The translations under genes and the position numbers were made by a program. Below the pieces are notes generated by a model that saw nothing but the letters and a program-made list of their open reading frames with translations, was not told where the DNA came from and made no database searches. From assembly GCA_038045265.1 (NCBI GenBank), contig JBBSYL010000010.1:582-64581 (forward strand): a DNA stretch of 64,000 bases, given 5' to 3'. Of the stretch, positions 3,319 through 51,855 are shown in pieces (the stretch's first letter is position 1; every line of letters starts with the position of its first letter). This DNA comes from Nanobdellota archaeon (GTDB taxonomy: Archaea; Nanobdellota; Nanobdellia; Pacearchaeales; GW2011-AR1).

Positions 3319-3546
3319 TTATCCATATCTGTCTTCGTAGAAACTTGTTGCACCATAACATGATAATCTTCCTAAAGCATCGTCTCTATCCACGCCATTC
3401 TCTCCTTCAAGGGATTTTCCTCCAAATCTTATATCGCTTGCTAATTTGTCTAATTTCTTTTTATCACCCTCTGCTAATAATCTCCTTACTTCTTCTGTAT
3501 CTACCATTATTTTCCTGCAGAACTTTAGTTTAAAAATCTTCCTCAC
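3319..3546 (-). CDS. small hypothetical protein
   Basis: 75-aa ORF between the discoidin-like genes and rps2, same strand. No family recognised. Confidence 0.3.
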   Translation of the reverse strand: MRKIFKLKFCRKIMVDTEEVRRLLAEGDKKKLDKLASDIRFGGKSLEGENGVDRDDALGRLSCYGATSFYEDRYG

Positions 3547-9229: not shown

Positions 9230-10285
9230 TTAAAGATTTGTATGGCCAATCTTTATCTCTTTCTCTATAGCGGAAAATACTTCTTTATTCGAGAAAGTGA
9301 ATTTTTTCAGATTTTTTTCATATAATGGAATTTTTGAAACGAATTTTCTAATAATCGATTTATCAATTTTACTTGAAGAGAGACCGAAATTAGCTTTTCC
9401 AACATAAAATGCGTTGACTTCCTGTTCTGTCTGCCCAGATAGGGGAATGCATAATACTGGCTTTTTTAAGTAAATTGATTCACTTAACGTGCTCATTCCT
9501 GCGTTAGAAACAACTGCTCTACTAGAAGCTAAATCTGCTGCAAAGTCTTCAGCGCTAAAATTCTTTATTTTTAGATACTTACTTGACTTCCTAGATAATT
9601 TTCCGTAAACTATGCACTTTTGCTTTGATTTTTCTAAAACTTCAAGAATAGAATCTCCGCCTAAACTTAGGTAAACTAGAAAATGATTGCCTGCCTTTTC
9701 CTTCTGTTTCTCAACTAATTTTCTTACTACGGGCGGAACGATAATAGCATTTTTACTTAAAATTTTTGGGTGAAAGAAACTTGTAATTATTTTCTTTCTT
9801 GGAAACGGACACATCAAATGCACTATCAGTTTGTATAGCGAAACTTCGGATAAATTTTTTATTTTTCCGGCAGATGTGTCTGTTACTATGTGCTGATTAT
9901 CAAAACTTATAACAGGAATTCTGAGAATAAGTCCAGAATATGCTGTCAAAGGTTCAAAATCTGTGATAATAACTTTTGGTCTGTTTAATATGCATGAAAT
10001 AATTACTTTTAAGAAAGACAATAAAATAAGTGGTGAAATAAGAAGATTATAAAGAAAGGTTTGAATGTATTTTATTTTCCCATCTCTTGTGATAAAAGAC
10101 AAATAATTTATGCTTTTTACTTCTCCAAATTTTTTAAGATAATCTTTTGCTTTCCCGCCTGTAAAAACAGATACATCGTGGTTCTTTTTTAGTTCTCTAA
10201 TCACCTCTGCACTTCTCATCGCATGGCCTAAACCTTCTCCATTTATGCCGTAAAATATTTTCATCCCCTGATGAAGAAAGAACAT
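9230..10285 (-). CDS. GT-B glycosyltransferase (MurG-like / MJ1255-type UDP-glycosyltransferase)
   Basis: N-terminal GINGEGLGHAMRS motif typical of MurG/GT1-like enzymes. The true start may be the internal Met at 10264. Confidence 0.55.
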   Translation of the reverse strand: MFFLHQGMKIFYGINGEGLGHAMRSAEVIRELKKNHDVSVFTGGKAKDYLKKFGEVKSINYLSFITRDGKIKYIQTFLYNLLISPLILLSFLKVIISCILNRPKVIITDFEPLTAYSGLILRIPVISFDNQHIVTDTSAGKIKNLSEVSLYKLIVHLMCPFPRKKIITSFFHPKILSKNAIIVPPVVRKLVEKQKEKAGNHFLVYLSLGGDSILEVLEKSKQKCIVYGKLSRKSSKYLKIKNFSAEDFAADLASSRAVVSNAGMSTLSESIYLKKPVLCIPLSGQTEQEVNAFYVGKANFGLSSSKIDKSIIRKFVSKIPLYEKNLKKFTFSNKEVFSAIEKEIKIGHTNL

Positions 10286-12980: not shown

Positions 12981-13769
12981 TTGCTTCTTTATTCTTTCAT
13001 GTATCATAAACTTACTGCTGAAGATATAAAAAAAGAGTTGGGTTTGCCTAAAAATTATAAAGTAGATGCATTTGCAATATATGGCGGGGGGGATGCTAAG
13101 AGATATAAAAGAAAGTTCTTGAGCGCTTTGGGAGATTTAAATTACAAAATAGAAAAATTACCAAATTCATTTATTAGAGAAATTTTAAGCATAAGGGTTA
13201 AAAATAAAAGAATATGGTTCGCGGTGGAATATGGTGGCGCTAGGCTCTCTGAGTATATTCACTTTGCTTCTATTTTTGGATCAAAGAAAAATATCTTAGT
13301 TGGAAAATGCGGTGGACTTCAGAAAAGCCAAACAGTTTTTGGGGTAATAGTTCCGGATTCCTCTTATTCTACTGAAAGTAGTTGTCATATGTATTTAAGA
13401 CAAAAACAAGATAATCTTTTTGAATCAGATAAAACGCTATCTGAAAGAATATTCCATAGAATGAAAAAAGAAGGGATAAAAGTCTACAGAGGGAAAACTA
13501 TTACCTGTCAAGCAATGATGGCTGAAACTTGGGAAGATGTTTTGTCTTGGAGTAGGCAAGGATTTCTAGGTGTTGAAATGGAGGCTGCCACTTTGTTTGC
13601 AGTATCGAACCATTTTAAAGTACCCGCCACCGCGATTCTCCAAATAGCAGACAATTTAATAGAAAAAGAAATAGTAAGCAGTAAAAGTTATTTGAAGAAA
13701 AAAGCCAAATTAAATCATCTTAGAAAATTTTTCCTGAAAGTTGTTTTAGATGAAATATTTAATATTTAA
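12981..13769 (+). CDS. purine nucleoside / MTA phosphorylase (PNP_UDP_1 family, DeoD-like)
   Basis: GVEMEAATLFAVSNHFKVPATAILQIADN matches the DeoD-type motif. 262 aa. Confidence 0.7.
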   Translation: MLLYSFMYHKLTAEDIKKELGLPKNYKVDAFAIYGGGDAKRYKRKFLSALGDLNYKIEKLPNSFIREILSIRVKNKRIWFAVEYGGARLSEYIHFASIFGSKKNILVGKCGGLQKSQTVFGVIVPDSSYSTESSCHMYLRQKQDNLFESDKTLSERIFHRMKKEGIKVYRGKTITCQAMMAETWEDVLSWSRQGFLGVEMEAATLFAVSNHFKVPATAILQIADNLIEKEIVSSKSYLKKKAKLNHLRKFFLKVVLDEIFNI

Positions 13770-34530: not shown

Positions 34531-36390
34531 ATGCGTGGCATTGGAATGAGAAAAGGGTTGATGTTGTTGGCTTTTGCTTTTGGTCTAATAGTTTTTAGCG
34601 GAATAGTTTTTGCTGCGGAAAACGACACTTCTGGAGAGAATATTGATAAGGCATATCAATGCCTTAAAGGAGAGATAGATAAAAGAACAAGTTTGAGTTT
34701 TCAGGAAGCTGTGTTTAGTACTCTTGCTCTTGGAAGTTATAAAGAAAATCTGAAAGTTATAGACAATGAAAAATACGGAAGCCAAAGTTGCTGGCCAAAA
34801 TCGGGGTGTAAGATTAAAGAAACAGGACAAGCATTACTAGCATTAGACCGTGCGGGAAGAAACACCGATCCAATTGAAAAATGGCTTCTTGGAAAGAATG
34901 GAACTGCGGATGATTTATCTTGGTTCCTTGAAATAGATATTAGAAATCAGCAAGTAGCTACATGTAGTATAAAATATAAGGGATTGACAGGAAATGTACA
35001 GATTGGTGCAGATTCCAAAATTTCTGGAAGCGCAGGCTCATGCCTTAGTATTTCTGATTCAGATTATCTTCTTAAGATAAGGGAGAGTTGCCTTGGAGAA
35101 GAGTTTGCAATTTCGTGTAATCAGGACTTTGTAACTACGCTGATTTATCAGAAGACAAGAGGAGATAATAAAGATTGCCTTGGAGAAAACAACATAACTT
35201 GTTTCGTTTCTGGAGAGACTCATGCAGCCTCTTCTTTAGGAACAACTGTTGAAAAGATAAAGGCTTCTTGCTTTAAGTCTGGAGGGAGATGCGATTATGA
35301 GGGAAGTTTATGGGCTGCCATTGCACTAGCAAAAACAGGGAATAATATTGACATATTTGCACCATATTTGCTTGCACTTGCCGAGGATTCGGGAAGATAT
35401 TTCCCAGAAGCATTCTTACTTTCCTTAATTGGGGATGATGATTCATTTGATTCTGTAATACAACAGAGAAAGCAAGGCCAATTTTGGGAAATTCAGGGAA
35501 GCCCATACAATAGATTTTACGATACCGCTTTAGGATTGCTTGGTCTCAACTCTAGGTCTGGAAGTACAGAAGTTGAGGCAACACAAAGTTATCTTCTTGG
35601 AATACAAACCAGGGAGGGATGTTGGAATAATAATAATATTAGAGATACTGCATTTTTACTTTATACTGGATGGCAGAAATCTTCTGGGGGTGGTGGAAGT
35701 GGAGGAAGTAGCGCATTATGTGAAGAAGCAGGATTTTCATGCGAAAGATTAAGCGAGTGCCAGGCGATTGGAGGAAGTACTAAAGAAAATTTTGAGTGCA
35801 CTGGAGTAGGAATATGCTGTTCACTAGAGGTTCCTAAGACAAGTTGTGAAGCAGAAGGAGGAGCGGTTTGTTCGGGAAATACAGAGTGCGATGGAAGAAC
35901 ATTCGAAGCAAGTAGTGGACAGGCTTGTTGTTTGGGGGCATGCATACCAACAGTAGTTGAGAATATATGTGAGGATAGTATTGGAGGAACGTGCAGATTT
36001 TCGTGTGAAGGGAAAGAGAGTGCGACGAGCGACAGTTGTGGATTAGATGCAGGAAGCATATGTTGTGTTAAGGAGAAAAGTAGTGGAGGTTCTGGAATGG
36101 TGTGGATAATCATTTTGATAATACTGATAATTATAATAGCACTCGCAATTTTGTACAGACATAAAATACAATTGTGGTGGCACTCAAGAAAGGGAGATTT
36201 CAAGAGCAGACCTGTTGTGAAGCCTGGAATACCTCCTGCAGGAACTTATAGGCCAATGCAAATGAGGCCAATGTTTGGAGCTAGACCTATGCAAGGTCAA
36301 CAACCTGCAAGAAGACCCGCGCCTGCAAGATCAGAAAGAGAAAGTGAATTAGATGATACCCTAAAGAAATTAAGAGATATGAGTAAGTAA
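34531..36390 (+). CDS. type I membrane surface protein with terpene-cyclase/prenyltransferase-like alpha/alpha-toroid repeats, Cys-rich stalk, TM anchor and proline-rich cytoplasmic tail
   Basis: Signal peptide. QW-like motifs (RKQGQFWEI, QTREGCWNN). Gly linker. CC-containing modules (CCSLE..., ACCLGACIP, SICCVKE). TM (VWIIILIILIIIIALAILY). Tail RPMQMRPMFGARPMQGQQPARRPAPAR. Confidence 0.55.
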   Translation: MRGIGMRKGLMLLAFAFGLIVFSGIVFAAENDTSGENIDKAYQCLKGEIDKRTSLSFQEAVFSTLALGSYKENLKVIDNEKYGSQSCWPKSGCKIKETGQALLALDRAGRNTDPIEKWLLGKNGTADDLSWFLEIDIRNQQVATCSIKYKGLTGNVQIGADSKISGSAGSCLSISDSDYLLKIRESCLGEEFAISCNQDFVTTLIYQKTRGDNKDCLGENNITCFVSGETHAASSLGTTVEKIKASCFKSGGRCDYEGSLWAAIALAKTGNNIDIFAPYLLALAEDSGRYFPEAFLLSLIGDDDSFDSVIQQRKQGQFWEIQGSPYNRFYDTALGLLGLNSRSGSTEVEATQSYLLGIQTREGCWNNNNIRDTAFLLYTGWQKSSGGGGSGGSSALCEEAGFSCERLSECQAIGGSTKENFECTGVGICCSLEVPKTSCEAEGGAVCSGNTECDGRTFEASSGQACCLGACIPTVVENICEDSIGGTCRFSCEGKESATSDSCGLDAGSICCVKEKSSGGSGMVWIIILIILIIIIALAILYRHKIQLWWHSRKGDFKSRPVVKPGIPPAGTYRPMQMRPMFGARPMQGQQPARRPAPARSERESELDDTLKKLRDMSK

Positions 36391-36431: not shown

Positions 36432-37622
36432 ATGAAAAAGATGAATCTAATTAAGATATTTGTTGCGTTTTTAGTCTTTATATCTCTATTTTCTATGAGC
36501 ATTAGTGCGCTTTCTTTAGATATGAAAGAAAGTTATCAACCTAGAGAAACTATGATTGTTGAAATAACTGGAAATATTTTGTCTCCAATAAATCTTGAAG
36601 ATATTGAGTTCAAGAGAAAAAATGTCATTGTTCCATTAAACTATGATGTTAAGGTTCTTGGAGAGAGGCATTTTATATGGGCTGTTGCGCCTTTGAATGA
36701 AAGCAATTACACTCTTGTGCTTAAAAAAGTGGATACAACTGTAAATGGAGTAAGAGAAGAGACAAGTTATGAAAAGAACTTTAGCATATACGGAAATATA
36801 ACTTCCTATAGTGTAACTCCTGGCTTTATCTTAACTAATAAAGAGAATTTTACTGTAGAAGTTTTCCTGTATGAAGATGAAAAAAAGGTTGTTAGTATAG
36901 ACTTTCCGGAAGTTCATGAAGTGACTTTAAGACCTGGAAAGAATGAACTTAAATTTAAAGTCGACTCTGTTTTCGGAAGCGTTTTCAGAGAGATACATCT
37001 TGGGTATTATACACTTCCTGCGTACATATCGGGAACAGCAAGGAATAAATATGAAGCGCAAGACAAACATCTTGCATTTGAGCCTGCAACTTTTTACAAA
37101 GAAATTGAGATTGACAGAACAGTTGAATATACCATTATCATAAGGAATAGATATAATGAAACAATAGAAGATATTTCCTTGAATTATAATGAAGATTTAT
37201 TTACAATTACTGAAGATTCAAGATTTGCTTTGGATCCTGGAGAAAGCAGAGAATTTATTGTTAAAACGAATGATCCTGTGAAAGAAGACTTAAGAGAATT
37301 CATATATGCAAGATCTGACGATATAGAAATTACAATGCCTATTGAGATATTGATAAAAAGAATAGATGAACAGACTGGAGAGAACTTGCTTTACTGCGAG
37401 GAAATCCCTGGAATGATTTGTACAGAAAGTGAAGAATGTGTGGGGGAGAGCGAAAATTCCATACAGGGTGCTTGTTGTTTGGGAATATGTGAGAAAAAAG
37501 AAACAGAAAGCGGAAGCAAGGGATTAATTGGGTGGTTTCTCGCAGGTATAATTATTATAGGTCTGGTTGTCATGTTTTTCAAGTATAGGAAATCAAATGC
37601 ACCAATAGAAGAAAAGAAGTAA
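36432..37622 (+). CDS. type I membrane surface protein with juxtamembrane Cys motif
   Basis: Signal peptide. Motif GACCLGICE shared with the upstream protein (QACCLGACIP). C-terminal TM. Confidence 0.5.
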   Translation: MKKMNLIKIFVAFLVFISLFSMSISALSLDMKESYQPRETMIVEITGNILSPINLEDIEFKRKNVIVPLNYDVKVLGERHFIWAVAPLNESNYTLVLKKVDTTVNGVREETSYEKNFSIYGNITSYSVTPGFILTNKENFTVEVFLYEDEKKVVSIDFPEVHEVTLRPGKNELKFKVDSVFGSVFREIHLGYYTLPAYISGTARNKYEAQDKHLAFEPATFYKEIEIDRTVEYTIIIRNRYNETIEDISLNYNEDLFTITEDSRFALDPGESREFIVKTNDPVKEDLREFIYARSDDIEITMPIEILIKRIDEQTGENLLYCEEIPGMICTESEECVGESENSIQGACCLGICEKKETESGSKGLIGWFLAGIIIIGLVVMFFKYRKSNAPIEEKK

Positions 37623-37629
37623 ATTATGG

Positions 37630-38136
37630 TTAATGTTTAGATTTCTTCTTTTTTTGTTTCTTTGATGATTTTTCTAAAACTTTATTTTCTGGCTGTGATG
37701 CATTCTGCTGTTGCCTAAATAACTGAGGTTCATAAGTTACCAAGCGTTTTGCTAGGAAATCTCTTTCTGCAACGACATTTTTTGCAAGGGCATCATAACT
37801 GTGAAGTCTCTGAACTAATTGGTTAATTGCCTGCGTAAGTTCTTCATTCTTAACTTTCAAATTTTCGGGGTAAGTAATTTCAAAATTGGAGGGCATATAC
37901 TTAAATGCTATAAAAAATAAAAGATCTATTGATGCTACTTCCAAGTCTATTTCTGAAAAAGTAGTATAAAGATCTTTGGAATCCTTGACTGGAATGGGAT
38001 CATTAATTTTCTTCGAAACTATTACAACTCCTTTTTCCTTAGAAAGTTGTTCAATTAGATTATTCATGGCGGCAGTTACATTCTCAGGAGGTCTTCCAAG
38101 TATTTCTAGAATAATTGAGAGCTTAATATTTTCCAT
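37630..38136 (-). CDS. hypothetical cytoplasmic protein with poly-K tail
   Basis: 168-aa ORF. No family recognised. Confidence 0.35.
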   Translation of the reverse strand: MENIKLSIILEILGRPPENVTAAMNNLIEQLSKEKGVVIVSKKINDPIPVKDSKDLYTTFSEIDLEVASIDLLFFIAFKYMPSNFEITYPENLKVKNEELTQAINQLVQRLHSYDALAKNVVAERDFLAKRLVTYEPQLFRQQQNASQPENKVLEKSSKKQKKKKSKH

Positions 38137-38170: not shown

Positions 38171-38911
38171 TTAAAGTCGCTTTCTAGAAAGAAAAATTAT
38201 AACAATTATACAGAAAGCAGCAAAGGCATAGGAAATCCACAAACGCATTCTTGCCTCTTTAGAAGTAAAAGTCAGGGTTTTGGCTTCTTTTTTCTCAGAA
38301 TTTTTTGAGTTTAGTAAGATTACTCCATTGTCTTCCTCTTGCTCGGGAGTTTTTTGTGTACTAACTTCTCTTGTTGAATTGGGGCTTGGTAAAACAACAT
38401 TGTCTTCCGGATTTCCTGCAGATCCCTCATTAGAACCTTGATCTTCTTCTGTTTCCTGAGAGGTCTCCTCCTCAGAAACATTGGAGGGAGGGTTAAAAAC
38501 TGAATTTTCTCCACAAGAATTTTCTGAATTCTTAGTTTCTTGCTCAAAAACCCAGGCTTCATTGCAGAAGTTCCAGGTCAAATTATCATTCTTTGCGTCG
38601 TCTAGGCTTGAAGTTTGGTGAACTATGCCGGAAGCATTTTTTATATAAATGACCGCATCTGAATTGTCTATCCATTGCTTTTCAAGTTGAACGATAAGAT
38701 ATCTCTCTATGTTTCCTGAGAGATTTATTATATCTCCGTCTTCATTTTCTAAGAAATAAGCGTTTAGATTTACTGTAAATTCGGAATAAAGTTCTATCCA
38801 TTCTTCTCCAGAATCTGCGCCTGGGGGATTAGATTCTACTTCTGAAATTATTAATGCATTTGCAAATGAAATAAAAAAGATAAAAATAAAGCTAATAGCC
38901 GTAGCTTTCAT
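38171..38911 (-). CDS. secreted lamin-tail-domain (LTD) protein with C-terminal TM anchor
   Basis: Signal peptide MKATAISFIFIFFISFANA. LTD motif ISEVESNPPGADSGEEWIELYS. C-terminal hydrophobic anchor. Start trimmed from 39013 to the internal Met at 38911. Confidence 0.6.
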   Translation of the reverse strand: MKATAISFIFIFFISFANALIISEVESNPPGADSGEEWIELYSEFTVNLNAYFLENEDGDIINLSGNIERYLIVQLEKQWIDNSDAVIYIKNASGIVHQTSSLDDAKNDNLTWNFCNEAWVFEQETKNSENSCGENSVFNPPSNVSEEETSQETEEDQGSNEGSAGNPEDNVVLPSPNSTREVSTQKTPEQEEDNGVILLNSKNSEKKEAKTLTFTSKEARMRLWISYAFAAFCIIVIIFLSRKRL

Positions 38912-39635
38912 GAAATACAATATTATTTTCAGAGTCGAATAGATAAATGGTGTCTCGGTCATTATTCCATATGCTTGTTTTGGAGTTCCAAAATATATCT
39001 GTTCTATTGTCATTTCCGCTTCCTGAGTGCAGATTCACCTCGGAATCTAGAAGAATATTAAACTTATATTGTTTTCTGCTTTCGTCTTTTAATATCCATC
39101 CTGAAAGATTAAATGGATTGCATATATTTTTAATTCTGACCATTTCTTCTTCTTCAGATACTTCAACATTTAAACATCCTGAATAATTTGAACTTTTCCA
39201 TATGCCTTTATTCCATTTAACTGCTTCCTTTTCTGCTTTGTCAAAGGCTTCAAGTTCTGACTCTTCCACAAGGAATTTTGAAGCTAAACCTAAAGAGACA
39301 AGTTCTAAATTAAGATATTTTTCATCTTGGGAATAAAGTCTAGCTAGAGTCCGACCATATTTTTCTATGCCTTGTTTCTCAATATAAATATTTTCCTTTT
39401 CATAAATTTTTAGGTAATTAAGGGATTTTATATAAAGGGGGGAAGATTTTTCCGGGGAATTTATATTTACTAACCTTACAATTCTTCCGTCTTCTAACTC
39501 TAATGTGTCTCCATCTATAACTCTTGCTAAAATAACTGATTCTAACTCTCTTTCAGACTCTGAGAAAATGAAAAAGATATTGGAAATTAATACAGTTAAT
39601 GCTAGAGCTATTAAAAAGGATATTTTCTTATTCAA
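38892..39635 (-). CDS. secreted thermonuclease (SNase-like) fused to a lamin-tail domain
   Basis: RVIDGDTLELEDGRIVRLVNINSPEK...YGRTLARLY (SNase catalytic region). C-terminal NPFNLSGWILKDES LTD-like. N-terminal TM/signal. Confidence 0.75.
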   Translation of the reverse strand: MNKKISFLIALALTVLISNIFFIFSESERELESVILARVIDGDTLELEDGRIVRLVNINSPEKSSPLYIKSLNYLKIYEKENIYIEKQGIEKYGRTLARLYSQDEKYLNLELVSLGLASKFLVEESELEAFDKAEKEAVKWNKGIWKSSNYSGCLNVEVSEEEEMVRIKNICNPFNLSGWILKDESRKQYKFNILLDSEVNLHSGSGNDNRTDIFWNSKTSIWNNDRDTIYLFDSENNIVFHESYGY

Positions 39636-40104
39636 TTTTTAATATGTGTGGGTTTACTTTTAATGAAGAGATAAATTTTCTTAAATCGACCTTATGTATT
39701 TCAAGAGTAGATGTATTTATGTTTGGATGAAAACCTGCAATATCTGCGTTCCAAACAACTTCATCAATAATTAAATTTACATCTTTTGCGTAAATCATGG
39801 CAAATATTGAGACTGAACCGGGAGATACGTTTAGATGAAACTTCAGTTCTTCTGGAGAAGCAAAGTGCAGTTTTCCCACATTAAATTCTTTTCTCAAAGA
39901 CTTTATATCTGCTCTTTTATATGCCTCCATAGCAATGAGGTAAAATTTATTTTTGTCATCCTTTAAAAAAAGGCACTTACAATGCAGACCAGGGATGTTG
40001 TTTTTTACTTTAAGAGATTCTTCAACAGTAAAAACTGCTGGATGCTTATGCTCTATAAATTTTATTTTATTTTTCTCTAAAAAGTCAAATAGTGTTTTGT
40101 CCAT
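39628..40104 (-). CDS. ybaK: YbaK/ProX-type aminoacyl-tRNA deacylase
   Basis: 158 aa. CKCLFLKDDKNKFYLIAM and SPGSVSIF match the YbaK editing domain. Confidence 0.8.
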   Translation of the reverse strand: MDKTLFDFLEKNKIKFIEHKHPAVFTVEESLKVKNNIPGLHCKCLFLKDDKNKFYLIAMEAYKRADIKSLRKEFNVGKLHFASPEELKFHLNVSPGSVSIFAMIYAKDVNLIIDEVVWNADIAGFHPNINTSTLEIHKVDLRKFISSLKVNPHILKIE

Positions 40105-41380: not shown

Positions 41381-41863
41381 ATGAAGAGAAAAGGTTTATC
41401 TCCCGTTATTGCTACTGTCCTCCTTATTGCAATAGTGTTGCTTTTAGCGGCAATCATTTTCTTATGGGCGCGGGGCCTTCTTACTGAAAGAAATCAAAAA
41501 TTTGATGAACCTGTAGAAAATGCATGCGGAGATGTAAACTTCGAAGCTGAAGCATATTTTGATTCTGATAAATACACTTTAGGGGTAGTCAACAAAGGAA
41601 CCGTCCCAATATATAGTATAGAACTTAAAATAAGAAGAGATGGTGCGATAAGAGATCTTAAGGTATTATCTTTGGAAGATGGAAAATATGGTACAATAAG
41701 ATCTGGGGAATCTAAGCTTATAGATTTAGGAAATGAGGGGGATATTGAAGTAGGGGATGAGCTTGAAGTTATACCAATAATACTTGGGCAGAAAGGAGGA
41801 GTCAAAACACCTTTCCCATGTGAATCTGATCAGGGTCAGAGAATTAATATAAAATCAGAGTGA
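41381..41863 (+). CDS. archaeal type IV pilin (class III signal peptide, Pilin_N/DUF361-like)
   Basis: MKRKGLSPVIATVLLIAIVLLL matches the archaeal pilin N-terminal consensus. Confidence 0.7.
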   Translation: MKRKGLSPVIATVLLIAIVLLLAAIIFLWARGLLTERNQKFDEPVENACGDVNFEAEAYFDSDKYTLGVVNKGTVPIYSIELKIRRDGAIRDLKVLSLEDGKYGTIRSGESKLIDLGNEGDIEVGDELEVIPIILGQKGGVKTPFPCESDQGQRINIKSE

Positions 41864-41864
41864 A

Positions 41865-42365
41865 ATGGAAAGAAAAGGATTATCTGCTATTGTTGCAACT
41901 GTTATGATTATAGCTTTGACAGTCGCCGCTGCAGGGATAATAGCTAAATTTGCGATACCTTTTGTCAAAGGAGGCTTAGAAAGTAGTACAGAATGTGTGG
42001 ATTATCAAGAATATTTTAAATTTGATGAATCTCTTGGATTTAACTGTTTTGAACCAGATGAAAACTTAATTCTCTCTGTAAGGGCCAGCAATAATGTGGG
42101 GGGCGATGATAAGATTAAGGGTTTTAATCTTGTTCTATTTGGAGACGGTTTTTCTAAAGTTATTTCTTTAGAGAATAATTTGCAGATAAATGATTTAACA
42201 ATGTACTCTGGAAACGTAATAGAAATTCCTTCTCCTGGAGAAACATTTAGTTATAATTATACCGAAAGAGGAATTTATAATTTTGCAGAATTGTTTCCTG
42301 TATTGAAAACGGGAAAGGTATGCGAAAGAAGGTCTGATAGAATTTCCCTCAGGAGATGCGGATGA
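41865..42365 (+). CDS. archaeal type IV pilin
   Basis: MERKGLSAIVATVMIIALTVAAAG class III signal peptide. Confidence 0.7.
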   Translation: MERKGLSAIVATVMIIALTVAAAGIIAKFAIPFVKGGLESSTECVDYQEYFKFDESLGFNCFEPDENLILSVRASNNVGGDDKIKGFNLVLFGDGFSKVISLENNLQINDLTMYSGNVIEIPSPGETFSYNYTERGIYNFAELFPVLKTGKVCERRSDRISLRRCG

Positions 42366-42907
42366 CGAGAAGAGGGCAGGTTTGGATAGAGACTGTGCTT
42401 TATACTTTGATAGGGCTTGCACTGATTGGAATGGTGTTGGCATTTGCTCTTCCAAAAATAAATCAAACAAGAGATGAAATAATAGTAGATCAGACCATAG
42501 AATCCTTGAAAGAGCTGGATAACTTGATAAATGGTGTTGCTGATCAGGGCCCTGGAAACAGGAGAACGTATGAAATAGGCATCAAAAGAGGTAGCTTAAC
42601 CTTTAATTCTGAAGAAGATATAATTGAATTCAGAATAAAAGACTTGGCGGACCTTTACTCTGAAGAAGGTATAGAAATAGAAAATGGGAGAGTAAAAATA
42701 CTGTCCTCTTCCGGACAAAAGGACAAAGAAATTCTTCTTTCTCTAGACTATGAAAATAAAATAAACATTAGCTATGCTGGAAGAGATGAAATTAAGGAAT
42801 TTAGTGCGGCTCCAATACCATATAAACTTTCTGTAACCAATGAAAGACAAGTTGTCGGAGAGCTCGTTAATATAAATATAGAGGCCATATCTGGAAGCTC
42901 CAATTAA
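42356..42907 (+). CDS. type IV pilin-like protein (bacterial-like RG/QxxxE N-terminus)
   Basis: MRMTRRGQVWIETVLYTLIGLALIG, with Glu at +5 after the putative cleavage site. Confidence 0.6.
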   Translation: MRMTRRGQVWIETVLYTLIGLALIGMVLAFALPKINQTRDEIIVDQTIESLKELDNLINGVADQGPGNRRTYEIGIKRGSLTFNSEEDIIEFRIKDLADLYSEEGIEIENGRVKILSSSGQKDKEILLSLDYENKINISYAGRDEIKEFSAAPIPYKLSVTNERQVVGELVNINIEAISGSSN

Positions 42908-42944
42908 CGGCATAATTTAAATAGATAATTGCATAAACAATGTT

Positions 42945-44471
42945 ATGGACCTTGTCATAAATCTCAAACCTCCCATACCTGCTCTTCCAAGAGTAACAGA
43001 CAAAAGTAAGGTAGATATTAGATATGTTTTGATTGCCCCCTACGCTGTAGCCCATATATATTGGGATGAAAAAACTTCTGAATTAGTTTATGAACTTGAA
43101 GAGCCCTTGCTTAACGAGCCAGAAAAGGCTATACTTGACAAGATTGAAGAAGGAATGCTCGAACTCATAAATGTTAATGTGGCTGTTGAGAAGACTTTAG
43201 AAGCAACAACAAATTATATAGACAAAACTGCAAGGCTTTTGATTGACGAATTTAATATAAAAATGTCTGAAGAGGGCTATCAAAAAATATTTTATTATCT
43301 TTACAGAGATTTTATTGGCTTAAATGAGATAGAACCCATCCTTAATGATTATTATATAGAAGATATAGAATGTAATGGTGTTGGAACAAGTGTGTATGTT
43401 ATACACAGAATATATAGGAATCTAAGAACAAATATACTTTATTCTGATGTAGATAAACTCGCAAATTTTGTTGAGAAGCTTGCGCAAAGGACTGGAAGAT
43501 ATATTTCCTATGCCCAGCCCCTACTAGATGGCAGTCTACCAGATGGAAGTAGAGTCAATGCAAGTTACACAAAAGATGTTACCTCTAAAGGTCCAACTTT
43601 TACAATACGTAAATTTACAAAAGTTCCTTGGACACCAATACAACTTATTGGACTTGGAACTGTGAGTCCCGAGATGCTTGCTTATTTCTGGATACTTCTC
43701 GAATACAAGTCTAGTTTTATGATAACTGGAGGTACTGGAACTGGTAAGACAACATTGCTTAATGCACTTGCCTTCTTCATTCCTCCCGAAGCGAGAGTTG
43801 TTAGTATTGAAGACACAAGAGAAATAAATTTGCCAAGAGAAAACTGGCTTCCAGCAGTTGCAAGACCAAGCATCGGAATAGGAAATGTTGGTGAAGTAGA
43901 TCTTTTCTCCCTATTGAAAAGCTCATTCAGACAGAATCCGGACTATTTAATAGTGGGAGAAGTAAGAGGAAAAGAAGCTTATGTCTTATTCCAAGGAATG
44001 GCTTCTGGTCATGCCTCTTTGAGTACAATGCACGCCGATTCTGTAGAGACATTGATAAGAAGGTTACAAACACCTCCGATAGAACTTCCGCCGAGCCTTG
44101 TTAACACATTAGACTGTGTTGCAGTAATAAGTCATGGATTGGTTAATAATAGGGATATAAGAAAAGTCAGAGAGATTGTTGAAATTATAAATGTAAATAA
44201 TGACGGTACAGCGATGGTTAATACTCCAATGGTTTGGGATCCAGCAAAAAATGTATTTTACTTCAAAAAGCAAAGCAAAGTCTTTGAGAAAATTGCATTA
44301 AAGCATGGAGTAGCACTTGAAAAAATAAGGAGGGAACTTCTTGCAAGAAGTAAACTCCTTTATGAATTATATAGGAATAAAATATTTGATTTTTATGAAG
44401 TAGGAAAAATAATCAATGAGTATTATAAAAATCCTGCAGAGGTCCTTACAAAATACGATATAAAAGAGTAA
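42945..44471 (+). CDS. type IV pilus/secretion ATPase (FlaI/ArlI/TadA/PilB family)
   Basis: Walker A GGTGTGKTTLLNAL. Walker B DYLIVGEVRGKEA. His box GHASLSTMHAD. Confidence 0.85.
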   Translation: MDLVINLKPPIPALPRVTDKSKVDIRYVLIAPYAVAHIYWDEKTSELVYELEEPLLNEPEKAILDKIEEGMLELINVNVAVEKTLEATTNYIDKTARLLIDEFNIKMSEEGYQKIFYYLYRDFIGLNEIEPILNDYYIEDIECNGVGTSVYVIHRIYRNLRTNILYSDVDKLANFVEKLAQRTGRYISYAQPLLDGSLPDGSRVNASYTKDVTSKGPTFTIRKFTKVPWTPIQLIGLGTVSPEMLAYFWILLEYKSSFMITGGTGTGKTTLLNALAFFIPPEARVVSIEDTREINLPRENWLPAVARPSIGIGNVGEVDLFSLLKSSFRQNPDYLIVGEVRGKEAYVLFQGMASGHASLSTMHADSVETLIRRLQTPPIELPPSLVNTLDCVAVISHGLVNNRDIRKVREIVEIINVNNDGTAMVNTPMVWDPAKNVFYFKKQSKVFEKIALKHGVALEKIRRELLARSKLLYELYRNKIFDFYEVGKIINEYYKNPAEVLTKYDIKE

Positions 44472-44513
44472 GGTCTATGAAAACTATATAAATATGGTGT
44501 CTAATTTATATTA

Positions 44514-44675
44514 ATGGAAAAAGAGGATGTAATATCGCTTGCTCACCTCCTGTCTGCTATGAAAGATTCTGCTATAAAGCTTGAAGAAGCGGTGAAAAAG
44601 AAAGATGCTGAAAAAATTACTGAAATAAAAAGAGAAATACTCAGATTTCAAAAAGACGTAGAGAGGGTTATATGA
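44514..44675 (+). CDS. small 53-aa helical protein translationally coupled (ATGA) to the platform gene
   Basis: Hand-translated as MEKEDVISLAHLLSAMKDSAIKLEEAVKKKDAEKITEIKREILRFQKDVERVI. Below the ORF-track size cutoff. Confidence 0.3.
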   Translation: MEKEDVISLAHLLSAMKDSAIKLEEAVKKKDAEKITEIKREILRFQKDVERVI

Positions 44676-45967
44676 TAGAGGAACTTTTGAAAAATATAGA
44701 TAATGAAATAGACATACTTAAGGAAATAGCCTTGTATAATAATAAATTATCTGAAGCGAATCAGCGAGAGAGAAAAATACTTCTTGCGGCAATAAGCTCC
44801 TTGAGAGAAGGAATAAGAATATTAAATGCTTCCGTTCCGAAAATAATGCAGGGTATATCTTTGGCTAAGAAATTGCCTGGAAAACACGAAAGCGGTTTGG
44901 AAAGAATATCTTTTAAGAGAAATGAAAAGGGAATGGATGCTGTCTTAAGAAGCGAAGATAAAGAAAGATTCTTATCTGAACTAAGAATAAATAACGAGGC
45001 GCTGGAAAAGTTGGGGGGAGAAAAACAAGAACAAGAAGTATCTTATGCCAAATTCAAAGGTTCAAACTTTTATCTTAAAGCATCAAATAGAATGTTTGTC
45101 GGACTTGCCAGAAACATGATAAAGCGGGGAAAATTCAAAACACTTGCTACGACCCTTAAAAAATCAAATTTAGACATTTTATTTGAAAGCTATGTTTCTG
45201 CAATTTTCTTTACAACTTTTCTTGCTGTATGCTTTTCGGCCGTACTCTATGTCCTTCTTATATTCTTAGACTTCAGTGTGAGCGCGCCATTTATTCAAAT
45301 ATATTCTGATACACATTTGAAAAGAGTAGGAAGCTTAATATGGGTGCCTTTGATCATTCCAATTCTTTTCTTTCTAGGTTCTTATTTCTACCCTTCAACT
45401 GAGAGGGGGAGTATAGAAAGAAGAATAGATCAAGAGCTCCCATTTGCTGTCGTCCATATGAGCGCAATATCCGGCTCCGGGATAGAACCAACCAGCATCT
45501 TTAAGATAATTGTTCTTGGAAAAGAATATCCTTATCTTAAGAAAGAAGTAAGAAAAATCCTTAATCAAATAAATCTTTATGGTTATGACCTGGTTACCGC
45601 ACTTAACAATGTTGCCAAAAATTCACCAAGCAAGAAACTGTCTGAGTTGCTTTCTGGGATGGCTTCTACAATAACTTCTGGGGGGAGCCTATCTAATTTC
45701 TTTGAAAAAAGAGCTGAAACATTATTGCTTAATTATAGACTCGAAAGAGAAAAATTCACCAAATCTGCTGAAACTTTCATGGACCTCTATATAACTGTGG
45801 TAATCGTAGCGCCCATGATCCTCCTACTTATTTTCATACTTCTCTCGATAAGCGAGTTTGGGCCAAGTATCTCTCCAGGATATATTGCATTTATGATAAT
45901 TGCTATAATCACTTTAATCAATATTATATTCCTTGGAATAATTCATATTAAACAACCTGCATACTAA
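44672..45967 (+). CDS. pilus assembly platform protein (TadC/FlaJ/T2SS-F-like), part 1
   Basis: Cytoplasmic N-domain followed by multiple TM helices. Adjacent to the ATPase. Confidence 0.65.
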   Translation: MIEELLKNIDNEIDILKEIALYNNKLSEANQRERKILLAAISSLREGIRILNASVPKIMQGISLAKKLPGKHESGLERISFKRNEKGMDAVLRSEDKERFLSELRINNEALEKLGGEKQEQEVSYAKFKGSNFYLKASNRMFVGLARNMIKRGKFKTLATTLKKSNLDILFESYVSAIFFTTFLAVCFSAVLYVLLIFLDFSVSAPFIQIYSDTHLKRVGSLIWVPLIIPILFFLGSYFYPSTERGSIERRIDQELPFAVVHMSAISGSGIEPTSIFKIIVLGKEYPYLKKEVRKILNQINLYGYDLVTALNNVAKNSPSKKLSELLSGMASTITSGGSLSNFFEKRAETLLLNYRLEREKFTKSAETFMDLYITVVIVAPMILLLIFILLSISEFGPSISPGYIAFMIIAIITLINIIFLGIIHIKQPAY

Positions 45968-45968
45968 A

Positions 45969-46823
45969 ATGAAAATAAAAAAAGTTCACTGGATAGGAAT
46001 TGGATTCGGCTTAATACTCATAGTCGCAGGTTTAATCTTTTTTCTTAGTAATGAAGAAAAAAACTTGCTATTCTTTATAATCGGATTGGGAATAACTGTA
46101 GGAATACTTCCATTTATTGTGGATGTAATTGTTCAAAACAAGAAAGCGCAGGAGATAAATGAAATGTTTCTTGAATTTTCTAGAAATCTCGCTGAAAGTG
46201 TTGCAACAGGGACACCTATAAGTAAGAGCATAATTAATTTGAGTAGAAGGAATTATGGCCCTCTAACAGAACACATAGAAAAGTTGGGCAATCAAATTTC
46301 ACTTGGAATTCCTCTAAGTAAAGCTTTATTTATTTTTGCAAGAGATGTAGATAATAATGTTATAAGTAGAGCAGTCTCCCTTATGAGTGAAGCAGAAAAG
46401 GCAGGCGGAGAGATTGCCGCGATATTAAATTCTGTTTCTCTATCTATAGCCGAGATAGAAAAGTTGAAGAGTGAAAGAAAAGCAGCCATATCTGGCCTAA
46501 TAGTTCAAGGATATATAATATTCTTTATATTTATTGGCATAATGCTTATAATGGAATTTAAAATTTTGCCTTTAGCTTTGCAGATAGATACGTTGAGCGG
46601 ATTAAGCCATGGATCTGTAAGTGCTACCGCATCGCCAGGTCAAGGCAATGCAGGGGAATCACTGCCCAATCTGTTTCTCTATCTATTGCTTGTTCAGGGA
46701 TTCTTTACAGGATTTGCAATAGGGAAACTGGCCGAGGGTTCTTTAAAGGCGGGAATAAAGCATTCTTTCATAATGATCGTATCTGCTCTGCTTATTTCTA
46801 CGGGAGTCAGGGCATTTATTTAG
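45969..46823 (+). CDS. pilus assembly platform protein (TadB/FlaJ/T2SS-F-like), part 2
   Basis: N-terminal TM, soluble helical domain, C-terminal TMs. The platform appears split into two genes. Confidence 0.55.
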   Translation: MKIKKVHWIGIGFGLILIVAGLIFFLSNEEKNLLFFIIGLGITVGILPFIVDVIVQNKKAQEINEMFLEFSRNLAESVATGTPISKSIINLSRRNYGPLTEHIEKLGNQISLGIPLSKALFIFARDVDNNVISRAVSLMSEAEKAGGEIAAILNSVSLSIAEIEKLKSERKAAISGLIVQGYIIFFIFIGIMLIMEFKILPLALQIDTLSGLSHGSVSATASPGQGNAGESLPNLFLYLLLVQGFFTGFAIGKLAEGSLKAGIKHSFIMIVSALLISTGVRAFI

Positions 46824-48753: not shown

Positions 48754-51700
48754 TTGAGAGATATGAAAAAGGCGAAGAGATTAATTAGATATTTTATTGT
48801 TATTATTGCTATTTTTTCTTTCTTATTTTCTATTAATTTTGTTGGTGCAGTTACTGCTGGAGATATATTAATTGTTGGGTATTCTGGAGGTTCAGGGCAA
48901 ATTGAGGGACTTACAAAAGTTGTGGATGGACAATATACTTATACTGTTCCTGCTGGAGTTACTCAAATTAAGGTTCAGCTCTGGGGGGCGGGCGGTGGAG
49001 GAGGGGCGGGAGGAACTGGGAGCTTAGGAAGTAGTGGAAATCTTGAGGGCGGAGGTGGAGGCGCATATGGCGAAGTTATTTTAGATGTTTCTAGTTCACA
49101 AACATATAATGTAGCTGTTGGAGCTGGAGGGAATGGTGTAGGATATAACTTACAAACTCCCCCTACTTCAGGAGGCAATTCTGTTTTTGGAACATATTAT
49201 GCAAATGGTGGGAGTGCTGGCGCTGTTATACCTAATGGTTGGAATTCGCATCCCGGAGGAACCGGAAGCGGAGGAACATTCAATACTCCTATTGGAACGA
49301 ATGGGGGGAGTGGTGGCTCGATAGGGGCGGTAAATGGTTGTGGTAGTGGAGGAGCAGGAGGCGTAGCTCCTGGAGGGAATGGAGCTCAAGCTGGCCCAAG
49401 TGCGGGGGCTGGTGGAGGAGCTTCTGGAGGAGGTGCGGAATATGCAGGGAATGGGGGAGCGGGAGGCAATTGCGTACTCGCACAAAGTGGTCAGAACATC
49501 CCAGGAGGGAATGGATTTTTGTATGGAGGTGGAGGAGGAAGTAGTGGAGTGACTACTCTTGCTGTAGGAAATGGAGGGAAGGGTGCAGAAGGACAGGTGA
49601 AAATAACTTATCTTTCTGTTGGGAGCCAAGGAAGTCAAACAGTTCAACCTACTTCCGGTTTGTGCGTACCTAATCAAACAATTATTTCATTATATCAAGA
49701 AAGCAATTCTCATGGAGCGATTTATAACCAAACATTCAATGATGTAAATGCTGGAATTGGTGTATGTTATGATAAAATTTTTGGATTCAATTATACTGGA
49801 GATACAAATCCTCAAAGATGTGGAGCCGAGAATGCAAATTCTGTTGTTAAAGTGATTAGCAAGAATAATGCACATGTAGAAGATAAATCTTTGAATAATT
49901 ATCCATATAGTTTATGCTATGGTGATTTGAATTGTAAACTTGAAGATAAAACATACACCCCATCTGCAAATGAGAGAGCAGTACTTTACTTATCATCCAA
50001 TACAAACGCACATGTATCTAGCACGGCAGGATATGATTTTATTGTTTATTGCACAAGCAACAATGGGCCTGTGCCTGGAACTGGAGAAATTATTTCTGCA
50101 GAATGGAAAGATGAATTTGAAAATAATTTGGCAGTGGATGAAAATGGAAATAATAAAAGCAATGTAAATTCTACCGTAAAATTAGTTGCTAAAACTACTT
50201 TTATAAATACTGAAATTACATTTGATATAAAAGAAGAAGATACTGGCTTACCTGATGCAAATATAAGAACTGGAGCAATAGCATTGAAAGCGACTACAAA
50301 TGGTGAGGGAATTGCTTCTATAAGCTGGCTCATAAATGACACTGACATGACTAAAGCAGGAGTAGGGCCTGCAGAATTTTATTTCACTGCAAGCGTGTTT
50401 GAAGAGAGTAAACAGAGCGGTATTTTGCTGACAAGCAAAACTCCTACGCCTCCTGAAAAAGAAATTGAAATTGAGATAGCTGGAATAAAAGATAAGGGGT
50501 TGTACTTTACAGGAGTGCCTGTTGAGATAAGTTATGTGCTTAGAAAGCCTAGTCAGGGAAGAGGATTAGAGTTAACCTGGAAAATAATTGAAGACAATTA
50601 TGAAAGTGATGATTTGACTTTCGATTATACTTTCCAAAATCCTGGGCAGAAGACAATTCATCTTACTGCAACAAATTCTTTTGGAGGAAGAGCAGAAAGG
50701 CAGGTAAGTGTCCTTGCAATAGGAGATAATGGTATATTTGCATTTATAGATAATCCGAGATTTAATGAAGTTTTGCCTGTAAGCAGTGACAATGTAAGAG
50801 TATTATATAATGCAAGCGGGAGCTACGTCGTAAATAGTACATATGATAAAACTCAATGTTTAGACATTTTGGCAAGAGGAAGATTAGTCTGTCTTGCCGG
50901 AAGATGCCCTAACGCTGTTGGAAACCCTCCAGCTGGATGCAGTGCACTAGTTGAAGAGAATAATAAAGGATATGAAAATCTTAATTTCACTTGGACAAGA
51001 TATGGAAAAAGTTCAATAAATACCTTTTCAAGATTTGGTTTGAAGCAGGATTACACCATATTTGGAAACAGCGAGTATTCTAATAAATTAAATGACAGAG
51101 CGTTTAAACTTGTCCTTAATTATACCAACGAGAGTGAAGATTTAAGTCTTCAACAGGAATTTATGAGAAATTATACTATTGGGCAATGCATCAATGATGG
51201 AAGGGGATTTGTTAAAATAGATAGTAAAGGAAATGTACTGAAAGTATTGGAAACAACTAACAAGAATAGTGGGGATTTTGACCCTAATGCGTGCAGGGCA
51301 GTTAGTGGAATAGTCTGCTGTCCAACAGGACATTTATGTGGAGCAAATGGATGTTATATTCCTGCTTCTACACCAGATATAGTAGAAGACTTGCCTGGAT
51401 GCTCAAGATATAGAACAGAACTGGCGTGTCTTGACGCTGTAGAAACAACTAATGCCTGCAGTGATGGAGGTTTGACTGCCGCTACCTCATGTCAATGGGT
51501 TGAGCAAACAGGAGGAAGTGGAGAATGCAAGGAGTATACTAGTATAATTGAGACGAGCAATGGGGCGGTGGCAGGAACATGCGTACAAGGCGTGAGAAAT
51601 CTTACCTCATGTGTTAATGGATTCAATAAGATAAAAATAGACACCACGTATACTGGAGGAAGTAATCCTGCAAATAGTTGTTTAAGTGAGGATGACTGCA

Positions 51701-51855
51701 AGAATAAAGCTGGAGAATTTACAGTACCATGTGGAAGGCCTGCGTTTGAATTGCCTTTCTTTGGAATAGAGCAACTATTAAGTGCACTTCTGATAATAGC
51801 TATAATCTATTCAATTTTAATTAAGACTAGATATATACCTAAAAAGAGAAAATAA
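48754..51855 (+). CDS. giant (1033 aa) cell-surface protein with ~300-aa glycine-rich domain, Cys-rich modules and C-terminal TM anchor
   Basis: N-terminal hydrophobic segment. VQLWGAGGGGGAGG...GGGGGAYGE poly-Gly blocks. Many paired Cys. C-terminal LLSALLIIAIIYSILIKTRYIPKKRK. Confidence 0.6.
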   Translation: MRDMKKAKRLIRYFIVIIAIFSFLFSINFVGAVTAGDILIVGYSGGSGQIEGLTKVVDGQYTYTVPAGVTQIKVQLWGAGGGGGAGGTGSLGSSGNLEGGGGGAYGEVILDVSSSQTYNVAVGAGGNGVGYNLQTPPTSGGNSVFGTYYANGGSAGAVIPNGWNSHPGGTGSGGTFNTPIGTNGGSGGSIGAVNGCGSGGAGGVAPGGNGAQAGPSAGAGGGASGGGAEYAGNGGAGGNCVLAQSGQNIPGGNGFLYGGGGGSSGVTTLAVGNGGKGAEGQVKITYLSVGSQGSQTVQPTSGLCVPNQTIISLYQESNSHGAIYNQTFNDVNAGIGVCYDKIFGFNYTGDTNPQRCGAENANSVVKVISKNNAHVEDKSLNNYPYSLCYGDLNCKLEDKTYTPSANERAVLYLSSNTNAHVSSTAGYDFIVYCTSNNGPVPGTGEIISAEWKDEFENNLAVDENGNNKSNVNSTVKLVAKTTFINTEITFDIKEEDTGLPDANIRTGAIALKATTNGEGIASISWLINDTDMTKAGVGPAEFYFTASVFEESKQSGILLTSKTPTPPEKEIEIEIAGIKDKGLYFTGVPVEISYVLRKPSQGRGLELTWKIIEDNYESDDLTFDYTFQNPGQKTIHLTATNSFGGRAERQVSVLAIGDNGIFAFIDNPRFNEVLPVSSDNVRVLYNASGSYVVNSTYDKTQCLDILARGRLVCLAGRCPNAVGNPPAGCSALVEENNKGYENLNFTWTRYGKSSINTFSRFGLKQDYTIFGNSEYSNKLNDRAFKLVLNYTNESEDLSLQQEFMRNYTIGQCINDGRGFVKIDSKGNVLKVLETTNKNSGDFDPNACRAVSGIVCCPTGHLCGANGCYIPASTPDIVEDLPGCSRYRTELACLDAVETTNACSDGGLTAATSCQWVEQTGGSGECKEYTSIIETSNGAVAGTCVQGVRNLTSCVNGFNKIKIDTTYTGGSNPANSCLSEDDCKNKAGEFTVPCGRPAFELPFFGIEQLLSALLIIAIIYSILIKTRYIPKKRK

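Follow-up and report, generated by a model that had tools for sequence, protein, structure and literature searches.

Does a pair of overlapping genes in a Nanobdellota archaeon, a tiny groundwater organism of the DPANN group, equip the cell to degrade nucleic acid at its surface? The genes lie in a 64,000-nucleotide stretch of contig JBBSYL010000010.1 (GenBank assembly GCA_038045265.1, positions 582 to 64,581 of the forward strand), referred to below as the window. An earlier note, made from the letters alone, had placed two open reading frames (ORFs) at 38171-39635. It read ORF1 as a secreted nuclease with a signal or anchor, a staphylococcal-nuclease-like (SNase) domain and a lamin-tail domain (LTD), ORF2 as a second LTD surface protein, and the two together as an extracellular DNA-capture-and-degradation pair. 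Both genes are present there in the ORF list, on the minus strand, and they overlap. The best explanation, and one that we consider reasonably probable, is that ORF1 is a surface nuclease for nucleic-acid scavenging and ORF2 its accessory or structural surface partner.

ORF1 (38892..39635, minus strand; stop codon 38892-38894) begins with TTG and encodes 247 amino acids. We take this start to be correct because M-[NQK]-[KR]-K opens the orthologues at the matching point and because an identical 247-amino-acid protein is held by NCBI, under the name 'thermonuclease family protein [Nanoarchaeota archaeon]'. ORF2 (38171..38911, minus strand; stop codon 38171-38173) encodes 246 amino acids from an ATG at 38911 (MKATAISFIFIFFISFANA..., MKATAISF...). 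Public gene callers and NCBI, where the identical entry is named 'hypothetical protein', agree on this length. Both exact proteins are encoded on contigs of 72-87 kb from Hainich groundwater metagenomes. The longest frame for ORF2, 38171-39013 (280 amino acids), was rejected as an over-extension; the extra stretch from 39013 overlaps the LTD of ORF1 in another frame. Hence, the stop of ORF1 and the start of ORF2 share 20 nt, read directly from the sequence (38892..38911, minus strand; ..cATGAAAGCTACGGCTATTAG). Both genes are judged real because ORF1 has more than 120 homologues of the same length and because a profile of the ORF2 family, run against 1.84 billion cluster representatives, finds 285 of them at E<=1e-30 (6319 at E<=0.001). 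A single frameshifted gene was also excluded: ORF1 ends with a complete LTD and an invariant Tyr-Gly-Tyr (YGY), and a canonical signal peptide opens ORF2 in all relatives.

Briefly, ORF1 consists of an N-terminal anchor, a catalytic domain and a C-terminal LTD, as the earlier note had described. The catalytic domain (residues 31-150; 39186..39545) is an OB-fold of the staphylococcal nuclease type, delimited from Pfam, alignment and Foldseek. Its match to Pfam SNase (PF00565) covers residues 53-147 and profile positions 2-106 of 107 (E 1.3e-12; 48.5 bits, cut-off 21). The LTD (residues 153-247; 38895..39179) is a beta-sandwich with the YGY at its end, delimited from Pfam, the structural model and invariant columns. 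Its Pfam match (PF00932; residues 162-240; E 1.2e-8) is marginal, at 35.8 bits for a cut-off of 34.3, and a precomputed PF00932 match is found in most ORF1 homologues. Residues Cys154 and Cys172 of the LTD are invariant. An AlphaFold model of ORF1 (predicted local distance difference test score, pLDDT, 91.3; predicted TM-score, pTM, 0.80) shows a helix at residues 3-25, a short low-confidence linker, the OB-fold domain and a beta-sandwich at residues 155-245, the strands of which exceed pLDDT 90. Foldseek aligned the first domain with Staphylococcus aureus nuclease (E 1.6e-9; TM 0.78-0.82; root-mean-square deviation 2.0 Å; ~30% identity). In a sequence alignment, Asp21, Arg35, Glu43, Tyr85 and Arg87 of the S. 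aureus enzyme correspond to D43, R54, E62, Y93 and R95 of ORF1, and the equivalent of Asp19 is also conserved. All 81 ORF1 orthologues, without exception, have D41, D43, R54, E62, Y93 and R95. These include the catalytic R54, E62 and R95. Scores against the NCBIfam equivalog models NucI and EcnA fell far below their cut-offs. Hence, ORF1 is assigned to the thermonuclease family only, and not to those specific enzymes.

The anchor of ORF1 occupies residues 1-25 (39561..39635), defined by the model and by hydrophobicity as MNKK followed by a 21-residue hydrophobic helix; two or three basic residues thus precede about 21 hydrophobic ones. Among orthologues, a 19-residue window lies above the Kyte-Doolittle membrane threshold (1.6 or more) in 80 of 81. 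At the end of the hydrophobic stretch, bulky residues stand at -3, and K, N, Q or H stands at -1 in 11 of 30 orthologues. No conserved signal-peptidase site was found in these 30 sequences. Hence, the helix was read as a signal anchor that is not cleaved, with the N-terminus probably inside the cell and the enzyme outside, about six residues from the membrane anchor. Residues 1-30 contain no cysteine and there is therefore no lipobox.

ORF2 has the predicted topology of a type I surface protein. A cleavable Sec signal peptide (residues 1-19; 38855..38911), identified from the residue pattern in relatives, would be cut between FANA and LIISEV. The ectodomain (residues 20-135; 38507..38854; SEVESNPPGADSGEEWIELYS...) was delimited from the family profile and the model. 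It is followed by a disordered acidic stalk (residues 136-216; 38264..38506), which is rich in E, S, N and T, has N-glycosylation sequons and was defined by pLDDT below 50 and composition. A membrane helix and basic tail (..SRKRL) complete the protein (residues 217-246; 38174..38263). In the model, a beta-sandwich spans residues 20-130 (pLDDT ~90), disorder extends over 136-216 and the helix runs from 218 to 244. Relatives have a short h-region, with A, S or G at -1 in 44 of 44 and V, S, A, I or T at -3 in 43 of 44. By sequence, this is a classic cleavable signal peptide. ORF2 had no NCBIfam match at E<=0.1, and the sequence before its helix (..KEARMRLWISYAF..) has no PGF or GG motif. Without a PGF-CTERM or GlyGly-CTERM signal, the C-terminus is read as a plain membrane anchor and not as an archaeosortase or rhombosortase sorting signal. 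That ORF2 might be a nuclease inhibitor in the cytoplasm, like barstar or Nin, was considered and then rejected because of the cleavable signal peptide. Cys116 of the ectodomain is invariant and Cys133 is conserved in at least 90% of relatives. The cysteine pairs of the ORF1 LTD and the ORF2 ectodomain are consistent with extracytoplasmic domains. Taken with the hydrophobic window of ORF1, and with the -1 residues of ORF2 and its C-terminal helix followed by RKL, they point to the extracytoplasmic localisation assumed at the outset for both proteins.

The identity of the ORF2 ectodomain was less apparent. On its own, ORF2 matches Pfam LTD below threshold (E 0.0048; 17.7 bits, cut-off 34.3; profile positions 6-70 of 109), and a search with the single sequence found only itself. 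The family was recovered from genes downstream of ORF1 orthologues and the resulting alignment was then used as the query. A word-indexed search with this alignment returned 68 proteins, some of them named 'lamin tail domain-containing protein' by NCBI. LTD is the sole Pfam family that the relatives match, with 20-34.4 bits and coverage of up to positions 3-104 of 109; the best scores 34.4 bits and others score 26-32 bits. Positions 20-133 of the family profile fall on residues 462-588 of one protein, P0190, and on residues 446-569 of another, P0314. The same residues are Pfam LTDs in both, at 163 bits in P0190, which has four LTDs, and at 80 bits in P0314, which combines an Exo_endo_phos nuclease with two LTDs. 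Foldseek placed lamin Ig-fold tails among the top matches of the ORF2 model, but with E above 0.01, so that the structural resemblance is no more than suggestive. Profile-profile comparison of the ORF2 and ORF1 families, at full length or with the domains only, gave no significant match; the best local alignment (E 0.056) contained three LTD motifs in order. Against PDB sequences, the ORF2-family profile gave noise on the anchor helix only. Since the family profile coincides with canonical LTDs, we conclude from transitive homology that the ectodomain is likely a divergent LTD. Hence, the LTD that the earlier note had assigned to ORF2 stands at the level of the family profile and fails on the protein's own Pfam score.

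Is the arrangement a general one? A scan of one genome per species gave 100 ORF1 relatives. We kept 80, all from metagenome-assembled genomes of Nanoarchaeota, Woesearchaeota or Pacearchaeota type, archaea that are uncultivated. The gene directly downstream of each nuclease was classed using hidden Markov models built from parts of the partner. A partner with a homologous membrane-anchor module directly follows the nuclease gene in 73 of the 80 species genomes. The partner is of the LTD type, like ORF2, in 12 genomes. In 61, a 'type B' partner is found, consisting of a signal peptide, a different domain of about 100 residues, an acidic linker and the anchor. The type B ectodomain (..DVKIF..SEIY..WKS..YY..FP..IC.RLRK..C..; loci L007, L010, L012 and 58 others) has two conserved cysteines and matches no Pfam family. 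When the LTD-type and type B partners were compared with hhalign, 56 columns aligned, equivalent to ORF2 residues 188-246 (98.6% probability; E 6e-16). The shared C-terminal module comprises a K-I-x-L-N motif, a juxtamembrane segment, the helix and RKL; in ORF2 its first element is an ILLN motif around residue 198, and the module thus takes in the end of the stalk. The two types of ectodomain do not align. Hence, the conserved entity is the nuclease together with an anchored, stalked partner that has an exchangeable tip. A second LTD, as in ORF2, is a minority state and not a conserved feature. LTD-type partners are scattered over a neighbour-joining tree of the nuclease, which is star-like and poorly resolved; as far as such a tree can tell, this suggests repeated exchange of the tip.

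The two genes are closely interlocked. In related loci, the partner starts 11-74 nt upstream of the nuclease stop, and in 40 of 73 an ATG at -20 and/or -11 falls inside the YGY-stop codons. A side observation concerns this junction (38892-38911, and the same in L005-L084). The codons for Tyr-Gly-Tyr-stop (TAT GGN TAT TAG) read ATG-G..-ATT-AG in the partner frame. The product, Met-Ala/Val-Ile-Ser, opens the signal peptide of the partner in many loci. The invariance of YGY-stop may therefore be due to dual coding in addition to protein function.

We propose the following mechanism. ORF1 would be inserted by the Sec pathway as a type II membrane protein, with its helix in the cytoplasmic membrane and the enzyme outside; SecY is encoded in the window and was counted for this export topology. 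With a divalent metal, the SNase domain would hydrolyse extracellular DNA or RNA via the Arg54/Glu62/Arg95 triad, while the LTD of ORF1 would be an accessory beta-sandwich. Products of the micrococcal nuclease family are 3'-phosphorylated mono- and oligonucleotides. Because of the 20-nt overlap, ORF2 would be made from the same transcript as ORF1, presumably co-transcribed with the flanking YbaK and MJ0538-family genes. Once exported, it would lose its signal peptide and stay tethered by the C-terminal helix, with a very acidic LTD at the tip of a disordered stalk of about 80 residues. Most likely, ORF2 is accessory and contributes positioning, cation binding or contact with another surface. 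The pair would degrade environmental or host-derived nucleic acid at the cell surface and the products would be used for salvage. This would provide nucleotides and phosphate to an organism whose lineage reportedly depends on scavenging.

The nutritional role is favoured because of a haloarchaeal precedent and a published proposal. Deletion of Hvo_1477, a lipobox-SNase-LTD protein of Haloferax volcanii, diminishes growth on extracellular DNA. Separately, pili and nucleases have been put forward as the means by which DPANN archaea take up and break down extracellular DNA. Like ORF1, Hvo_1477 is an archaeal surface-attached protein with an SNase domain followed by an LTD. However, Hvo_1477 has a lipobox where ORF1 has a cysteine-free transmembrane anchor, the 21-residue hydrophobic helix. 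Homologues from two haloarchaeal plasmids, annotated 'lamin tail domain-containing protein', are ~25% identical to ORF1 over 83-99% of its length. The LTD of ORF1 lacks the N-terminal 'NDEYV' loop region of these two proteins, and the LLD-equivalent N-terminal loop differs. Their loci have no overlapping partner gene, unlike the DPANN nuclease (the Hvo_1477 locus itself lay outside this comparison). With S. aureus nuclease and other members of the thermonuclease family (PF00565; YncB, YokF, NucI), ORF1 shares the OB-fold and catalytic residues. It differs from the S. aureus enzyme in having Asn for Asp40, shorter loops and a slightly acidic nuclease domain; it is also LTD-fused and membrane-anchored, whereas S. 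aureus nuclease is released. The pI of S. aureus nuclease is basic.

Bacterial LTD nucleases offer a second comparison. ExeM and Xds, of Shewanella and Vibrio, are also extracytoplasmic nucleases with an LTD and a membrane anchor, and are retained at the membrane. However, their catalytic domain is Exo_endo_phos and not SNase. In addition, their LTD, nuclease and C-terminal GlyGly-CTERM anchor are combined in one 871-amino-acid polypeptide. Here, the LTD-plus-C-terminal-anchor unit is a separate protein, ORF2, and the nuclease has an N-terminal anchor of its own. ExeM is the only LTD nuclease from which the LTD has been deleted. The domain was dispensable in vivo for extracellular DNA degradation, activity dropped in vitro, and the authors leave its role between membrane association and catalysis. 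As summarised in the work on ExeM, Mans et al. (2004) describe prokaryotic LTDs (PF00932) on membrane-associated or secreted hydrolases and suggest association with membranes or membrane structures. ORF2 differs from such proteins in having a single, very acidic LTD on a stalk, no enzymatic domain and a score of its own below the Pfam cut-off.

Several observations weigh against scavenging by a nuclease with a dedicated partner. The first concerns the metal site, for which the Ca2+ ligands considered were the side chains of Asp21 and Asp40 and the backbone of Thr41. Where the S. aureus enzyme has Asp40, ORF1 has Asn59, part of an invariant N-I-N-x-P-E-K motif, and the replacement is found in 30 of 30 homologues retrieved independently of any pattern. 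The same is true of 81 of 81 loci, a count to which one of the two scan patterns contributed by requiring NIN. The DPANN clade always has NINxPE, whereas the two haloarchaeal homologues read GIDTPE and GVDTPE. Since these keep the usual Asp, the change is specific to the DPANN clade. Owing to Asn59, the metal dependence or activity of ORF1 may differ. Substitutions of Asp40 in the S. aureus enzyme are known to reduce activity and not to abolish it; the literature searched gave nothing usable on their kinetics. Asn can still ligate a metal and so Asn59 lowers, but does not remove, the expectation of activity. We expect ORF1 to be an active nuclease with a modified metal site.

The remaining difficulties are genomic. 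No transporter or nucleotidase gene was found near ORF1 and ORF2. No partner domain was found in 7 of the 80 genomes. Three of these clearly lack a partner (L052, L072 and L080, where the MJ0538 gene comes right after the nuclease) and a fourth, L009, probably does, with MJ0538 next and only 457 nt of contig left. Of the others, L074 and L081 have only a signal-peptide-plus-helix stub and L043 is cut by the contig end. Furthermore, the nuclease and partner belong to a block of ~15 kb that is syntenic in most of the 80 genomes. It contains the pilus genes, TrxR (thioredoxin reductase), YbaK, SNase, the partner, MJ0538 and two secreted cysteine-rich proteins, p396 and p619. The YbaK gene lies upstream in 63 of 80 loci and MJ0538 downstream in 68. 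Overlaps of a few nucleotides between unrelated genes are usual in this compact genome. In the window, the YbaK/tRNA-editing-domain gene (39628..40104, minus strand; Pfam tRNA_edit, E 8.9e-27) overlaps the start of ORF1 by 8 nt; it is probably in the same transcript, with no functional link implied. Given such overlaps and the synteny of the block, adjacency alone is weak evidence of joint function. Finally, one of four ORF2 relatives inspected on other contigs lacks an adjacent nuclease: it comes after an Hjc-like gene, and its 3-kb flanks contain no SNase gene. The other three speak for a link, since each is directly preceded by an SNase gene, with overlaps of 26-59 nt.

The alternative that survives best builds on these points: the genes are neighbours only through frozen gene order, the nuclease acts by itself, and ORF2 is a surface or adhesion protein that has nothing to do with it. 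Block synteny, the overlap of ORF1 with the clearly unrelated YbaK, the genomes without a partner and the partner without an adjacent nuclease would all fit. So would the two haloarchaeal plasmid loci, in which the SNase-LTD gene stands alone with no overlapping partner downstream, according to plasmid gene tables that are incomplete. However, nuclease and partner stay adjacent when both flanks change. In the three loci just mentioned, from a sister lineage (L087, L088 and L089; about 1870-2340), a DUF192 gene replaces YbaK upstream of the nuclease, and two opposite-strand genes, one with a faint Peptidase_M64 match, are inserted between the partner and MJ0538. In most loci, moreover, the start of the partner is embedded in the last codons of the nuclease. 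There is also at best a weak sign that partner type groups the LTDs of ORF1 more than its SNase domains (a difference of 0.011 identity; permutation p 0.003, uncorrected for phylogeny). We conclude that the link between nuclease and partner is strong but not obligate. Frozen gene order is an unlikely explanation of it.

A bolder account goes beyond an accessory partner. The SNase-LTD nuclease and its translationally coupled partner may form a two-protein surface machine of Pacearchaeota and Woesearchaeota type, in which the exchangeable tip, an acidic LTD in about 1 in 6 species and type B in the rest, directs the nuclease to its site or target, such as the envelope of a host or one specific polymer. 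If so, the partner would be a modular targeting or regulatory subunit, something undescribed for any SNase-family enzyme. We give this account a rather slim chance.

Slimmer still are the prospects of the capture-and-degrade pair, in which the stalked LTD of ORF2 would bind extracellular DNA and hand it to the membrane-proximal nuclease. The Ig-fold tail of lamin is reported to bind DNA. The geometry is also apt, with an LTD at the distal tip of a long flexible stalk and a nuclease ~6 residues from its anchor. Removal of the LTD from ExeM slowed DNA degradation in vitro, and an ORF2-type LTD is fused to the Exo_endo_phos nuclease of P0314. However, the ORF2 ectodomain has a net charge of -18 and a pI of 4.05. 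The charges of 44 relatives all lie between -8 and -22 (median -14) and the stalk adds a further -11. Since the median pI of proteins in the window is 6.4, this acidity cannot be put down to the proteome as a whole. With domain and stalk both polyanionic, ORF2 would repel DNA and be ill suited to bind it directly, unless divalent cations form a bridge. Furthermore, 61 of 73 orthologous partners have no LTD, and that of ExeM is dispensable for extracellular DNA degradation in vivo. Judged by its composition, ORF2 is probably not a DNA-binding receptor. Hence, the pair envisaged in the earlier note survives in part: scavenging by the nuclease is plausible, given Hvo_1477 and the DPANN proposal, while DNA capture by the ORF2 LTD conflicts with its charge.

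Least probable by some way is a role in cell-cell interaction or defence, with a fast-evolving tip that recognises a host or competitor surface and a nuclease that attacks foreign nucleic acid (host, virus or biofilm DNA): the tip is exchangeable between two unrelated domains with the LTD type scattered over the nuclease tree, the module has a type IV pilus-like cluster and further secreted proteins rich in cysteine as neighbours, and ExeM-type surface nucleases act in biofilms, but the window gives no evidence on the organism's lifestyle, the tree is too star-like to resolve the scatter, and partner ectodomains (39-58% identity) are about as conserved as nuclease domains (47-62%), comparable values that give no sign of unusual diversification.

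Scavenging had also been linked to a PNP-family phosphorylase elsewhere in the window. The gene exists (12981-13769, plus strand; TTG start, 262 amino acids) and encodes a PNP_UDP_1 superfamily protein (E 1.2e-18; match over residues 99-227). Neither position nor family assignment supports a link to the nuclease: the gene is 25 kb away, within an exosome/proteasome gene neighbourhood, and its product is a distant member of the superfamily. Its score of 62 bits compares with cut-offs of at least 230 for DeoD-type models and is far below every NCBIfam cut-off (DeoD-type PNP, AMP nucleosidase and MTA/SAH nucleosidase). Hence, it adds little to the scavenging reading.

The wider setting of the two genes is as follows. 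The window has a G+C content of ~34% and encodes archaeal housekeeping proteins, including exosome subunits, the proteasome, SecY, ribosomal proteins, PCNA, a primase-like protein and FttA. No tRNA genes were found in the 64 kb. Downstream of ORF2, after 34 nt, is an MJ0538-family gene of unknown function (37630..38136, minus strand; Pfam PF27325). Its product has a lysine-rich tail and no signal peptide. As in 68 of the 80 loci, the MJ0538 gene comes after the partner gene in L090, even though that partner has no adjacent nuclease. Beyond it, two genes encode proteins of 619 (34531-36390, plus strand) and 396 (36432-37622, plus strand) amino acids. Each opens with a signal peptide, contains cysteine-rich segments and ends in a membrane helix. 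Neither matches a Pfam family significantly, and both are syntenic with the nuclease operon in at least 54 of 80 genomes.

On the other side, divergent from and adjoining the nuclease operon, is an archaeal type IV pilus-like cluster (41381-46823, plus strand). It encodes three small proteins with class III-type signal peptides (MKRKGLSPVIATVLLI.., MERKGLSAIVATV.. and MRMTRRGQVWIETVLY..), a T2SSE-family ATPase (508 amino acids) and two T2SSF membrane proteins. In most related loci whose flank is long enough, homologues of the pilin and ATPase genes are found upstream and on the other strand. Elsewhere in the window, two adjacent overlapping genes (3543-4505 and 4498-5352, both minus strand) each encode a C-terminal F5/8 type C (discoidin, carbohydrate-binding) domain. 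A 618-amino-acid sulfatase-family protein (10318-12174, plus strand; Pfam Sulfatase E 3e-48, residues 208-506) is encoded beside a family-1 glycosyltransferase (9230-10285). Two very large proteins, of 1033 (48754-51855, plus strand) and 890 (51899-54571, plus strand) amino acids, match no NCBIfam family; the first has a precomputed Gly_rich_2 match and the second no Pfam family. The gene context of a Halocatena salina plasmid (L085) differs from that of the DPANN operon. There, an SNase-LTD gene lies near genes for an excalibur calcium-binding-domain protein, an HNH endonuclease and a restriction endonuclease (1551-1826, 4004-4534).

How much of this is new? ORF1 is a thermonuclease-family member that was already annotated, with one metal ligand changed and the architecture of Hvo_1477 on a different anchor. 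In the literature searched, we found no paper on the nuclease of this clade or on its partner; thermonuclease combined with Woesearchaeota gave none, and lamin-tail combined with DPANN gave irrelevant ones only. Hence, the conserved partner with an exchangeable tip is probably unreported, as an observation of gene neighbourhoods. The scavenging interpretation is plausible, and its general idea has already been published for DPANN archaea. Three leads emerge: Asp is invariably changed to Asn at a metal ligand, a helix anchor takes the place of a lipid one, and the conserved stalked partner has an exchangeable tip. They leave current understanding as it was. DPANN archaea are thought to scavenge building blocks, and how they acquire nucleotides is largely a matter of inference. 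The ORF1 family, which has an experimentally studied relative in Haloferax, is a widespread and well-conserved candidate for the first step, the cutting of extracellular nucleic acid at the cell surface.

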